NCBI GenBank assembly: GCA_964650515.1
Contig: CAZYUB010000004.1
Span: 69,541-133,540, forward strand
DNA length: 64,000 nt
Direction: 5' to 3'
DNA from: an uncultured Planctomycetia bacterium
Lineage (GTDB): Bacteria; Omnitrophota; Gorgyraeia; Pluralincolimonadales; Pluralincolimonadaceae
In this document: positions 60,842 through 64,000 of the stretch, piece after piece
How positions within the stretch are numbered: the stretch's first letter is position 1
Layout: each line of letters starts with the position of its first letter
Program-made: the position numbers and the translations under genes
Notes under the pieces: model-generated
Told to the model about the DNA's origin: nothing
What the model saw: the letters and a program-made list of their open reading frames with translations, nothing else
The model's database searches: none

Positions 60842-62383
60842 ATGACTAAGAAAAACACGACGAGAGGGTATCTTTTTGTCTTCACCGCCTTTATATTAAC
60901 TTTTATCATTACATATATAATGGCGGGTATGATAGTCTTTGAAGAAGGGAATATTCTTTTTCCGCTTCTCTGGCTTATGGGCTTTTGTGTCCTTGTATTC
61001 AATGTTTGCCTCGCGTTAACGCAGGCGGTGTTTTATTTCTTCTCGAGCGAAATGATATTGCCGGAAGCGAAGCCGGAAGGTAACCCGATGACCGCGGTGG
61101 TATACCCGGTCAAAGATGAGACATTCGGCCTGTACGAGAGGATTAAGTACACGATAGAAAATAATATCGAGGAGAATGTCCATTATTGGATCCTGAGCGA
61201 CTCGAAAGGCCCCGCCCTTGAATACGAGGAAGATATTACGGGCAGGCTCTGTAAAGATTTCCCTGAAATACCCATAAAATACAGGAACCGTCCCGACCCC
61301 GTTGAAAAAAAGCAGGGGAATATAAGCGACTGGATAAATGACCAGGGTAAATATTATAAATACATGATAGTGTGCGACGCAGACAGCGTGCTGCCATCCG
61401 GGACATGCCGGAAGCTGATAAGCAAAGCAGAACATCCTGATAACGCGAACATTGCCATCTTCCAGGGCGGCATAAGGGTCATACACGCAAAGACATTTTT
61501 CAGCCGTTTCATCGCCCTGGCGACCGAGTCATCGCAAAAGTTCAACGTGACGGTGGTCTGGAGGATATTCGGCAGATCGATGTCGGTAGGCCATGGTAAC
61601 CTTATTAGGATAGAGCCCTTTTCAAAGGTGAAACTCAGGAAAGGCATTATATGCCATGACATATGGGAGACCGCCTACCTGGACCAGATGGGATACCGGG
61701 CTTGTTTCTGCGAGGATGTCATCAGCTACGAAGAGGTGCCGGGCAATTATCTGGAGGCGAGGAGCAGGGACAGCCGTTGGGCGAAGGGAACACTGCAAGC
61801 ATGGCAATTACCCTTCTTGCCGGATATTTCGCTTTCGACTCGCTACCATATAGGTTATTGTATTTATTCATATCTCGCGCATATACTGCTTCTGATATGG
61901 ATGGTCTCGGGGTTTTTCTGCGCTTCTGAAATAGGAGGCCAGCTCCTGAGTTTCCAGAGGTATGCGTTTGTCGGCTACTCGATGATAGACCTGGAATTGT
62001 CTTCTATGATGATAGGATCGCTGCTGATAATGGCATTCCATAAGCTGGTGGCCTGCAGGAGTTTCAGGGACGTCACCAACTTGTTATCGGAGGTCCTGTT
62101 CTCGACGCTCGTCGCTTTAAACAACGTGTTTTACGTGTCGATGGACCTTTTGACTATGCCGTTCAGTAAATTCAACTGGAAACCGATGAAGAAGAACCCG
62201 CTCGACAGTATAACGCTGGCGGAGACCATAAAGACACTGCTTCCAGGGACGGTATTCGGATTGGTATGCGTATATCTCGGGATAAAATATTCCGTGCACT
62301 GGCTTATAATAAGCTCTCCTTTTGTCATCAGTTTTGTGGGAGCGATACCTATAGTTTATTTAACGGCGATGAGGAGCGAATAA
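60842..62383 (+). CDS. GT2-family processive glycosyltransferase, OpgH/MdoH-like (glucan synthase-like)
   Basis: N-terminal TM helices, AVVYPVKDE, DADS and the Q/SRDSRWAKG (QxxRW-like) motif, with C-terminal TM helices. Confidence 0.7.
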   Translation: MTKKNTTRGYLFVFTAFILTFIITYIMAGMIVFEEGNILFPLLWLMGFCVLVFNVCLALTQAVFYFFSSEMILPEAKPEGNPMTAVVYPVKDETFGLYERIKYTIENNIEENVHYWILSDSKGPALEYEEDITGRLCKDFPEIPIKYRNRPDPVEKKQGNISDWINDQGKYYKYMIVCDADSVLPSGTCRKLISKAEHPDNANIAIFQGGIRVIHAKTFFSRFIALATESSQKFNVTVVWRIFGRSMSVGHGNLIRIEPFSKVKLRKGIICHDIWETAYLDQMGYRACFCEDVISYEEVPGNYLEARSRDSRWAKGTLQAWQLPFLPDISLSTRYHIGYCIYSYLAHILLLIWMVSGFFCASEIGGQLLSFQRYAFVGYSMIDLELSSMMIGSLLIMAFHKLVACRSFRDVTNLLSEVLFSTLVALNNVFYVSMDLLTMPFSKFNWKPMKKNPLDSITLAETIKTLLPGTVFGLVCVYLGIKYSVHWLIISSPFVISFVGAIPIVYLTAMRSE

Positions 62384-62384
62384 A

Positions 62385-63341
62385 ATGAGCGAAAAGCCCG
62401 ATCTCTTTAAATCAACCGAACACGAGAAGATAAGGCTCGCCAGGGAGCACAACAGGAAGCTGCTGATATTTGCGGTTATCGTAACGATATGCGGCTTCAT
62501 ACCGTTCGGCAGGAATATAAACGGCATTGCAAGAGTAGTGCCGGAAAGATACTGCTATATAGACGCTTTCCAGTCGGGGATAATCTCGAAGATATTTGCG
62601 AATGAAGGGAGCACGGTAAAAGAAGGCGACGATCTGATCGAGATAAAGAACCTCGAACTGATGTCCGAGCTCGACACTTCCTACAGGAAAGAAGTGATAT
62701 TGAACGAGGAGACAAAAAAACTGGAAGAAGAGATTGCCTGGCATCGGAAAGCGCTGGACAGGAACCTGAACCTTTATAATGACGAGGTCATAGCTCCCGC
62801 GGAGATGGAGCTTACGCGGCTTAAATATAATAATGCCCGGCATGAATTGGAGATAAACAAACAAGAGGCCGATATACTGCTGAAGAGAAGGGAGTATCTG
62901 CTTAAATCCATCGAGATGACCCGGGTAAAAAGCCCGATGAGCGGTGTAGTCGTGGGGAAACTCAAGGACAAATCCGCGGCGGTGGTAGAAAAGGGCGAGG
63001 AGATATGCCAGATAGTCGATAATTCTAAATTCCTGCTTGAATTCCCGATAGAAGAGAAGAAGATACAATACGCGAAGATCGGGCTGCCTGCTGCAATAAG
63101 GTTTTACGCTTTTCCCGAAAGAATATACAAGGGTGAGCTGAAAGAGATAAGGCCTATATTCTGGGAAAAAGAAGATAAACTGATAGTTAAGGAAAATGTC
63201 ATAAATGTGCTTATCGATTTCAAGGGAGAGGTGCCGAAAGGCCTGAGGACGGGCATGAGCGCGTTCGTGAATATTAATACCGGGAAGACGTGCTTCTGGA
63301 AGATGCTTAAGGATAAGATCGTCTATATGCTTTCGAGCTGA
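62385..63341 (+). CDS. HlyD-family membrane fusion protein
   Basis: Single N-terminal TM helix, biotin-lipoyl-like hairpin (GSTVKEGDDLIEI), a long coiled coil, and beta-barrel (VKSPMSGVVVG). Confidence 0.75.
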   Translation: MSEKPDLFKSTEHEKIRLAREHNRKLLIFAVIVTICGFIPFGRNINGIARVVPERYCYIDAFQSGIISKIFANEGSTVKEGDDLIEIKNLELMSELDTSYRKEVILNEETKKLEEEIAWHRKALDRNLNLYNDEVIAPAEMELTRLKYNNARHELEINKQEADILLKRREYLLKSIEMTRVKSPMSGVVVGKLKDKSAAVVEKGEEICQIVDNSKFLLEFPIEEKKIQYAKIGLPAAIRFYAFPERIYKGELKEIRPIFWEKEDKLIVKENVINVLIDFKGEVPKGLRTGMSAFVNINTGKTCFWKMLKDKIVYMLSS

Positions 63342-63342
63342 C

Positions 63343-64000
63343 ATGAAAATACTTCGTAATACAGACATATTGATTGCCGTGTTTCTGCCGTTTTTCGCGG
63401 TATTTATTGCCGCGGCTGACGCTAATGCCGAGAAATTGTCGCTGAGCCAGGCGGTCGACATCGCCGTGAAGAACAGCCCCGACATAGATATAGCGAACCT
63501 GGAAAAGCAGAGATCGGATTACAGGTTCAAGTCAAAGGCAGCGGACATGTATCCGCGTATAAGCAACTTCACCCGGTATTCGAGCGACGAATATGCAAGC
63601 GACTCGGCAAACAAGGGATGGCTTGTAAGCGAGCAGTTTGTCCAGCCTATATGGAAAGGCGGGAGACTGTATTATACGAAGGAATTTTACAGGAACCTGA
63701 AGGACATCGCCTCCGTGAGGGCGGCAATAAAGGAGCTCGATATAGTATTTGAGGTAAAGAAGGCGTATTTTGAAGCGATGAAATATTCCGAACTCCTTAA
63801 GGTCAGCGAAGAGATAGAAAAAGTCGTAAGTAGCCATTACGAGAATGTGGACAAGATGTACAGCCAGGGGCTTGTCCCGAAAGTAGACGTGCTTAAGACG
63901 AAATCTATACTCGACAAAGCCCAGCTGGAGCACGTGCAGATACTTAACGAGTATTTCCTTTCAAAGAACCGCCTTAACCACGTCCTGAATGTCCCGCTCG
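63343..64000 (+). CDS. TolC-family outer-membrane channel (3' partial, continues beyond window)
   Basis: Signal peptide, then LSLSQAVDIAVKNSPDIDIA...KAQLEHVQILNEYFLSKNRLNHVLNVPL, typical OEP repeat 1. Confidence 0.7.
   Translation, partial: MKILRNTDILIAVFLPFFAVFIAAADANAEKLSLSQAVDIAVKNSPDIDIANLEKQRSDYRFKSKAADMYPRISNFTRYSSDEYASDSANKGWLVSEQFVQPIWKGGRLYYTKEFYRNLKDIASVRAAIKELDIVFEVKKAYFEAMKYSELLKVSEEIEKVVSSHYENVDKMYSQGLVPKVDVLKTKSILDKAQLEHVQILNEYFLSKNRLNHVLNVPL

Follow-up and report, generated by a model that had tools for sequence, protein, structure and literature searches.

We describe here an operon of three genes at the end of a 64,000-nucleotide (nt) stretch of contig CAZYUB010000004.1 (assembly GCA_964650515.1, positions 69,541-133,540; Omnitrophota according to GTDB), the whole of which is called the window below. 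The operon would encode a tripartite, synthase-dependent beta-1,2-glucan secretion system whose outer-membrane channel carries a tethered periplasmic glucanase, a reading to which we assign a probability of roughly 60%. Its genes code for a family 2 glycosyltransferase (GT2), a membrane fusion protein (MFP) and an outer-membrane factor (OMF) of the TolC family, and they occupy the following positions (protein lengths in amino acids, aa):

60842-62383, plus strand: OpgH-like processive GT2 glucan synthase, 513 aa.
62385-63341, plus strand: MFP, the periplasmic adaptor, 318 aa.
63343-64000, plus strand: TolC-family OMF, N-terminal part, 219 codons, open at the window end.
63343-63429, plus strand: Sec signal peptide of the OMF (aa 1-29); the first OEP repeat also lies within the window part.

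The gaps between the GT2 and MFP genes and between the MFP and OMF genes are exactly 1 nt each. That an MFP and a TolC-like channel follow a membrane GT2 directly, separated by such gaps, had been claimed in the original prediction, which was made from the letters of the window, and both the open reading frames (ORFs) and their families were confirmed. What could not be seen at that time is that the OMF continues into a GH144 domain and TPR repeats, because this part of the gene lies past the window end. It is this GH144 fusion that gives the strongest clue to the product.

In the mechanism that we favour, the GT2 would polymerise glucose from a nucleotide sugar at the cytoplasmic face and would thread the growing chain, whose linkage is most likely beta-1,2, through a transmembrane channel of its own, as its family and fold suggest. 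The MFP, anchored by one transmembrane helix, would bridge the periplasm and dock with the tip of its hairpin on the co-encoded TolC-family channel, and the latter would then offer the route across the outer membrane. Docking of the MFP on the OMF is suggested by the conserved RxxxLxxxxxx[S/A/G] tip and by strict gene linkage. As the synthase itself would be the inner-membrane component, no ATPase or other transporter would be needed. The tethered GH144 domain might trim or release chains, or clear glucan that has gone astray in the periplasm, and the TPR part may serve as a scaffold, as in BcsC, AlgK and PgaA. A comparable trimming or clearing role is played in other synthase systems by BcsZ, AlgL, PslG and XcsC.

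The layout of the GT2 is that of a cytoplasmic GT-A domain with two N-terminal and about 4-5 C-terminal transmembrane helices; hydropathy places them at residues 11-29 and 38-56 before the catalytic domain and within 337-361, 381-399 and 463-505 after it. The DAD/DADS- and QxxRW-like motifs that had been noticed earlier, together with helices on both sides, are indeed there, in the form of CDADS (residues 178-182) and RDSRW (residues 309-313). At the nucleotide level, the DxD motif is located at 61376-61384, HD at 61655-61660 and RxxRW at 61766-61780, and residues D179, D181, H272, D273, R309, R312 and W313 are invariant in all 38 members of the GT2 family. In the AlphaFold2 (AF2) model of this protein (pLDDT 88.6, pTM 0.87), the GT-A domain rests against a bundle of transmembrane helices forming a polymer channel, as is characteristic of processive membrane GT2 enzymes. 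When this model was compared with the PDB by Foldseek, the first matches were structures of Cgs/NdvB (8rf0 with E 1.3e-18 and TMq 0.72, but also 8rfe and 8rf9), which is thus the closest solved fold to the GT2 and its transmembrane region. BcsA came second (9b8v, TMq 0.71), followed by hyaluronan, plant cellulose (CesA) and chitin synthases, and almost all of the top 50 PDB matches were processive channel-forming synthases. On the basis of this fold comparison, assignment of the GT2 to a non-processive family was rejected.

Classification with hidden Markov models agreed with the OpgH-like class proposed at the outset. Apart from a Pfam match to Glyco_trans_2_3 (9e-12), the only models of NCBIfam that matched the GT2 were nine MdoH/OpgH models, the best one being NF003958 (1.7e-56, 191.8 bits, residues 4-511). 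With Escherichia coli OpgH the GT2 shares 27% identity over 385 aa (E 1e-21), in an alignment that takes in the DxD, SHD/CHD and RxxRW motifs as well as the C-terminal helices; the (S/C)HD and RxxRW motifs are common to the window GT2, OpgH and Cgs. A PDB sequence search with the GT2 family profile found no OpgH structure and gave a weak match to Cgs only (E 0.005). Neither a PilZ domain, the presence of which the original prediction had proposed to check, nor any other extra domain was found on the GT2 in Pfam at E up to 1, and the protein ends with its last transmembrane helix; downstream of the window, read from relatives, no PilZ domain came to light either. Among the called operon neighbours, which are the MFP, OMF-GH144, TPR and RHS proteins, there is no opgG or opgD (GH186, MdoG-type) gene.

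The second gene encodes an adaptor which matches HlyD_D23 (1.5e-13), HlyD_3 (9e-13) and RND_mfp (7e-22) and which starts with an N-terminal transmembrane anchor (aa 27-45, one helix by hydropathy), followed by a lipoyl/barrel-sandwich domain, an alpha-hairpin and a beta-barrel. Next to the synthase there is thus an MFP that has both a membrane anchor and an OMF-docking tip. The motif at the tip of the hairpin, R126-x3-L130-x6-A137 (nt 62760-62795), corresponds to the OMF-docking motif RxxxLxxxxxxS defined in PMC3391258, and the S-to-A variant is tolerated in MacA, where S143A keeps its activity (PMC3391258). Across 41 MFPs of this family, R is present in 34, L in 37, and G, A or S at the third position in 39.

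As the window stops inside gene 3, the downstream order was read by proxy from contig L061, which is colinear with window positions 60787-64000 at 94.7% nt identity. The window part of gene 3 matches OEP (1.3e-26) and the TolC family (1.3e-14), and protein P0066 (1189 aa) is 95% identical to its residues 1-219; a homology search with the 219-aa fragment itself gave no matches. On L061, which is the contig of P0066, the genes for the GT2 (513 aa) and MFP (318 aa) are followed by one for a 1189-aa OMF-GH144-TPR protein, in which Pfam recognises two OEP repeats (3e-49), a Glycoamylase/PF10091 domain (5.6e-53) and TPR repeats. Only 13 nt after this gene there starts another one, which encodes a protein of no less than 1248 aa that contains DUF6531 and RHS repeats. 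The same layout as in L061 is found in L004 and L005 (about 82% GT2 identity), which come from Candidatus Omnitrophica UBA6215 and a related metagenome-assembled genome (MAG), whereas L002, L003 and L064 have separate, overlapping genes for the OMF-GH144 protein (816-826 aa) and for the TPR protein (379-392 aa). Upstream of the trio, L064 preserves the synteny of the window, with HMGL-like, radical SAM and polyprenyl synthase genes and a minus-strand spermine-synthase-like gene.

The GH144 domain read from these proxies, with PF10091 above its cutoff and an alpha/alpha-6 fold like that of CpSGL and XcSGL, is predicted to be a beta-1,2-glucanase. Its matches in a PDB sequence search were XcSGL/XCC2207 (8xul, 4e-51), BDI_3064 (5z06) and CpSGL, the Chitinophaga endo-beta-1,2-glucanase (5gzh, 1.5e-25). 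In the AF2 model of P0066, residues 436-820 have pLDDT of 80-95 and superpose on the XcSGL, BDI_3064 and CpSGL structures with TM values of 0.77-0.84 (Foldseek). The E, F and Y residues by which the SGL clan is defined are the general acid E239, F286 and Y367 in XcSGL (PMC12102758); it needs to be mentioned that 8xul is the E239Q mutant and that its chain numbering is offset by 14. Their counterparts in the fusion are E603, F648 and Y711. These do not vary among 10 fusion clusters, and with stand-alone homologues included their conservation is still at least 90%. In the alignment, F286 falls on F and E239 on the TDE motif, the latter with a register ambiguity of one residue, and Y711 was assigned by conservation and spacing (63 residues from F to Y versus 62 in CpSGL) rather than by superposition of structures. 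Among eight fusion representatives, all keep ExSxVDT and seven keep YTDE.

The GH144-TPR tail most probably resides in the periplasm. The C-terminus of TolC is itself periplasmic, at the equatorial domain (structure 1EK9), the TPR orthologue that stands alone carries a signal peptide, and in the AF2 model of P0066 the linker that follows GH144 is disordered; all three observations argue for this location. The TPR gene is separate and bears its own signal peptide in L064, L002 and L003, while in L061, L004 and L005 it is fused in frame, and a linker stands in these fused proteins where the signal peptide of the TPR protein was. This fusion or fission separates even close relatives (L061:2557-6126 versus L064:10001-13607).

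Such a combination of domains seems to be rare. At E up to 1e-30, an exhaustive phmmer search of 1.84 billion representatives clustered at 50% identity retrieved 582 proteins. Nearly all of these are GH144-only, and the alignment spanned both OMF and GH144 in eight, with identities from 74% down to 30%. In the library searched, no paper pairs GH144 with TolC, and we came across no account of a channel of the TolC family to which a glycoside hydrolase and TPR repeats are fused. As a side observation, P0215 (635 aa) is an OMF homologue, 30% identical to P0066 over residues 7-427 of the latter, with a different C-terminal extension of about 210 aa which is not GH144, and it may be another OMF-enzyme fusion.

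An OpgH-like synthase accompanied by a glucanase might also be understood in terms of osmoregulated periplasmic glucans (OPG). According to this explanation, which we find rather unlikely, the GT2 would free beta-1,2-glucan into the periplasm and the OMF-tethered GH144 would act as OpgG/OpgD (GH186) do, setting chain length or possibly cyclising the product, with the MFP and OMF mainly positioning the enzyme or leaking some oligosaccharides. The canonical OPG set is indeed OpgH plus a periplasmic beta-1,2-glucanase (PMC10514313), and the E. coli pair of OpgH and OpgG(OpgD) resembles the operon in having an OpgH-family GT2, with DxD, SHD and RxxRW in common, and such a glucanase. In the same direction point the predicted periplasmic location of the GH144 domain, outside the channel lumen, the lack of an opgG/opgD homologue in the operon and the fact that related alpha/alpha-6 domains catalyse cyclisation in Cgs (8wy1). 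The E. coli OPG enzymes OpgG and OpgD belong to GH186, whereas here the glucanase is a GH144 domain carried on the OMF. Against an OPG-like pathway stands that classical OPG systems require neither an MFP nor an OMF, both of which are present here. Such a pathway also gives no account of an MFP with a docking tip and a dedicated OMF kept beside the GT2 in dozens of loci, many of which are without GH144.

Conservation of gene linkage supports the secretion system that we favour. When GTDB species representatives were scanned with a pattern, 57 loci were obtained, nearly all in Candidatus Omnitrophota MAGs; 47 of them had at least 1.1 kb downstream and were evaluable, and 30 had flanks on both sides. 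An MFP gene was present within two genes of the GT2 in 38 of the 47 evaluable loci, at GT2 identities of about 36-88%, and the adjacency is thus not due to chance. Both MFP and OMF were detected in 19 of the 30 loci with room on both sides, a number that comes from a crude gene call and BLAST labels and is an undercount, and a TolC-family OMF was co-encoded in at least 20 of the 30 loci with enough flank, this linkage being what suggests its participation. The OMF gene lies downstream of the GT2-MFP pair in the clade of the window and upstream of it in a clade of about 40% identity. In L066, which is divergent and rearranged, GT2-MFP-TPR genes and an OMF-GH144 gene are divergently arranged and yet remain together. 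That the OMF changes its position, while in L066 all the genes still keep together, argues for functional coupling. GT2 homologues of less than about 35% identity (Rudaea, Planctomycetaceae) are without MFP and OMF.

The same survey bears on another explanation, namely an ordinary efflux pump or type I secretion system of which the MFP and OMF would be parts, with its inner-membrane transporter encoded elsewhere and the GT2 as a neighbour that has nothing to do with it. By themselves, the MFP and OMF have matches only to generic models of RND/HlyD adaptors and TolC, and the window, which ends inside gene 3, would by itself leave room for a transporter downstream. However, the ABC (ATP-binding cassette) transporter, whose absence had been claimed in the original prediction and whose appearance immediately downstream would have spoken against it, was found neither beside the trio inside the window nor downstream of it in L061, L003, L004, L005 and L064, so that the claim stands by proxy. 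When RND and MFS transporters were considered too, none was located beside the trio in these five contigs, in L002 or in L066, and none of the three types was among the conserved neighbour families of 60 loci; a motif scan of these loci revealed a single ABC-like ORF, far from the trio. Moreover, GT2-MFP adjacency is kept at identities as low as about 36% and in spite of a shifting OMF position, and its fusion to a glucanase links the OMF with glucan metabolism. We therefore reject, on the evidence of synteny, that the MFP and OMF serve type I secretion or efflux by way of an unlinked transporter, and give this explanation hardly any credence.

The type of linkage can be approached from three sides. 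The affinity of the GT2 to OpgH and Cgs and the specificity of characterised GH144 enzymes both suggest a beta-1,2-glucan, and so does a group of genes located about 24 kb upstream of the trio, at 32.7-38.6 kb of the window, which are possibly related to it:

32754-35024, plus strand: CBM11/CBM30 and GH144-family protein, 756 aa, with a signal peptide.
35025-37226, plus strand: GH116 beta-glucosidase, 733 aa, without a signal peptide.
37223-38596, minus strand: MFS transporter (Pfam MFS_1, 4.9e-22), adjoining the GH116 gene.

The first of these proteins (PF10091 7.6e-72, CBM30 1.6e-10) is a second beta-1,2-glucanase-like enzyme in this genome and the second one (DUF608/GH116, 1.7e-76) is cytoplasmic judging by its N-terminus. 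The glucanases that had been placed at 32.7-37.2 kb by the original prediction thus turn out to be one CBM-GH144 protein that is secreted and one GH116 beta-glucosidase that is cytoplasmic, and positions 32754-38596 look like a small locus for breakdown and uptake of beta-1,2-gluco-oligosaccharides. For the GT2 itself, the fused GH144 and the Cgs-like fold are circumstantial evidence for a beta-1,2-glucan backbone made from UDP-glucose.

Several points weigh against a beta-1,2-glucan secretion system of this kind. The score of the GT2 (191.8 bits) fails the MdoH equivalog cutoff of 419, and with 513 aa versus the 847 aa of OpgH the protein is without the N-terminal cytoplasmic domain and C-terminal tail of the latter. 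Given the weak score and the missing terminal extensions, its linkage specificity could differ; and as the cutoff was missed and no opgG accompanies the GT2, the system should not be filed as OpgH proper. A c-di-GMP-binding domain was not found on the GT2, unlike BgsA and XcsA. The GH144-TPR tail of gene 3 is deduced from the 94.7%-identical contig and is not in the window, and the P0066 fusion was modelled by AF2 as a monomer, in which confidence is low for the strands of the beta-barrel. In addition, a glucanase outside the TolC alpha-barrel cannot reach a chain in a sealed MFP-OMF conduit, so its role has to be indirect; with such a conduit the GH144 domain would act in release, clearance or quality control, by analogy with BcsZ, AlgL and XcsC. 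Finally, what is said here on the product, its type of linkage, its export and the formation of a complex is inference throughout.

Among known systems, one that is close in logic is that for mixed-linkage beta-glucan in Sinorhizobium meliloti, where a membrane GT2 (BgsA) adjoins an HlyD-type MFP (BgsB), a channel of the TolC family is needed, an ABC transporter plays no part and a tripartite model has been proposed (PMC13438883). The requirement for TolC in that system is genetic (PMC13438883). Synthase-dependent glucan export of this type, in an OpgH-like variant, is what the original prediction had suggested, and our results support it as the putative function. There are, however, differences. 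BgsA is BcsA-like with a c-di-GMP-binding C-terminal domain, whereas the window GT2, which is OpgH-like, was not found to carry one; S. meliloti recruits a housekeeping TolC encoded elsewhere, whereas the Omnitrophota operon has a dedicated OMF fused to GH144 and TPR; and the likely product here is a beta-1,2-glucan, versus the beta-1,3/1,4 product of BgsA/BgsB.

A second parallel is the XcsAB-TolC model for the extracellular cellulose that cyanobacteria make (Maeda et al. 2018, as cited by PMC12430437), which the citing paper describes as not experimentally validated. According to that account, the Xcs system likewise combines a GT2 synthase, an HlyD-like MFP and a TolC-like channel, with an accessory endoglucanase, XcsC (PMC12430437). 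As presented there, XcsA is a PilZ-bearing cellulose synthase and TolC is encoded outside the Xcs operon (PMC12430437), and the glucanase is a separate protein of another family, whereas here GH144 is covalently fused to the channel. Taken together, the Omnitrophota trio differs from Bgs and Xcs in five points: the OpgH-like synthase, the lack of a c-di-GMP-binding domain, the dedicated co-encoded OMF, the fusion with a hydrolase and TPR, and the host phylum. With regard to c-di-GMP, an Rfam scan of the whole window detected no RNA element, hence no c-di-GMP riboswitch.

Comparison with Cgs, whose fold is discussed above, is instructive as well, since that synthase is also combined with an alpha/alpha-6 SGL-clan domain acting on beta-1,2-glucan. 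In Cgs, however, everything is contained in a single giant polypeptide of about 2800 aa, which faces the cytoplasm and includes GH189 and GH94 domains, whereas here the SGL-clan domain would be periplasmic, is carried on the OMF and belongs to GH144. The product of Cgs is exported by a separate ABC transporter (NdvA/ChvA). On the side of the outer membrane, the operon resembles BcsC, AlgK-AlgE, PgaA and PelB, in which a periplasmic TPR scaffold is joined to an outer-membrane exit and a dedicated periplasmic hydrolase or lyase is encoded in the operon. The exits of BcsC, AlgE, PgaA and PelB are monomeric 16- to 18-stranded beta-barrel porins, while here the exit would be a trimeric TolC-family channel reached via the MFP. 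The OMF-GH144-TPR architecture may therefore be regarded as a merger of the TolC route with the porin-TPR-hydrolase logic of Bcs, Alg and Pga.

Tripartite export of glucan by a synthase, an adaptor and TolC is a recent and thinly supported idea, which relies on the genetics of BgsAB/TolC (2026) and on the unvalidated model for cyanobacterial cellulose, and in both Bgs and Xcs TolC is a shared housekeeping channel encoded elsewhere. Here, a synthase, an adaptor and a dedicated channel, translationally coupled in one operon and kept phylum-wide, provide the clearest genomic evidence so far for such machines, and the module, having three or four genes, makes a compact target for reconstitution and cryo-EM. 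It also leads to the prediction that secreted beta-1,2-glucan, so far reported mainly from Proteobacteria, is made by uncultured, possibly host-dependent Omnitrophota.

The genomic company of the module deserves a comment. A DUF6531 and RHS-repeat protein of 1248-1619 aa with a Sec/lipoprotein signal peptide is encoded directly after the module (L061:6139-9882, L004:16078-20934, L003:16238-20224) and is present in every close relative whose contig is long enough. In L003, the RHS gene is followed by genes for a PD40 beta-propeller protein and then a Y1 transposase. It might be assumed that the module serves this giant lipoprotein, with the glucan as a matrix or anchor for its surface display or delivery, or with the MFP and OMF aiding its passage through the outer membrane. 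On one hand, the RHS gene directly follows the module in L061, L062, L003, L004, L005 and probably L064, and the GT2-MFP-OMF family recurs in secretion and mobile clusters of other Omnitrophota. On the other hand, linkage to RHS is confined to a close clade, L066 and the clade of about 40% identity being without it; the RHS proteins carry Sec/lipoprotein signal peptides, while one-step type I substrates have none; the ABC component is absent; and a glucan synthase paired with a beta-1,2-glucanase is left unexplained. Such a service to the RHS protein is thus very unlikely to be the function of the module.

In the sister clade of about 40% identity, an OMF-GT2-MFP trio is embedded in a conserved plus-strand cluster (L035:1389-15659; also L010, L012, L024, L032, L042 and others). 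The trio is preceded there by genes for a TraC/VirB4 ATPase (2e-80), TraL-like, VirB8-, VirB9- and VirB10-like proteins and a PC4-like protein of 82-90 aa, and it is followed by genes for a sugar-1-phosphate nucleotidyltransferase (NTP_transferase), a YhcG PDDEXK nuclease, a CBM11-like protein and a tyrosine integrase or large serine recombinase. The 82-90-aa ORF upstream of the OMF was also considered as an acyl carrier protein for OpgH, and this was rejected, the protein being PC4-like. These clusters, which resemble type IV secretion systems (T4SS), are often present in several copies per genome, and each looks like an integrative conjugative element that carries the glucan-secretion module.

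The G+C content of the trio is about 9-10 points below that of its surroundings: 0.46-0.48 at positions 60842-64000 versus 0.56 at 1-60780 in the window, and 0.41-0.45 versus 0.52 in L004 (9944-16065). Foreign origin or a distinct codon regime would fit these values, and the T4SS context, the multiple copies and the low G+C together suggest a mobile, surface-related module. One could go further and propose that the OMF-tethered GH144 is no housekeeping hydrolase and performs a chain-terminating or cyclising step in a new route which delivers size-defined, possibly cyclic, beta-1,2-glucans to the Omnitrophota surface. In that case the module would serve as a portable device for cell contact. 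It would be coupled to a toxin-like RHS lipoprotein in the clade of the window and built into conjugative T4SS clusters of integrative elements in the sister clade, and in either clade the glucan would mediate attachment to partner or prey cells. We regard this as a quite unlikely, speculative scenario.

Immediately upstream of the operon, the window contains:

60781-60841, no strand: AT-rich intergenic region of 61 nt between the divergent upstream gene and the GT2 start.
58585-60780, minus strand: polytopic membrane protein with a spermine/spermidine-synthase domain, 730 aa, the upstream neighbour of the GT2.

The intergenic region is presumed to hold the promoter of the operon, and a promoter and terminator scan at the operon gave a signal no better than that of shuffled controls. 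The 730-aa spermine-synthase-like protein is encoded between the polyprenyl synthase and the GT2 in the window and in L064, and not at that place in L004.

A few minor observations concern the wider family. A GH144 gene is located 6 kb from the GT2 homologue of Rudaea. In L008 (11024-14728) and L009 (1791-5633, minus strand), proteins of 1235-1280 aa with an internal GH144 are encoded within a few kb of GT2-MFP pairs that have no OMF-GH144 fusion. In several Omnitrophota genomes, three to four paralogous GT2-MFP(-OMF) modules reside on different contigs, namely in L030/L036/L043/L047, which belong to one MAG, in L020/L026/L037 and in L006/L015/L034. Finally, the GT2 is split into 2-3 ORFs in L009 (9830-11515), L057 (9842-11282) and L060 (9839-11629), and these may be frameshifts, decaying copies or assembly errors.

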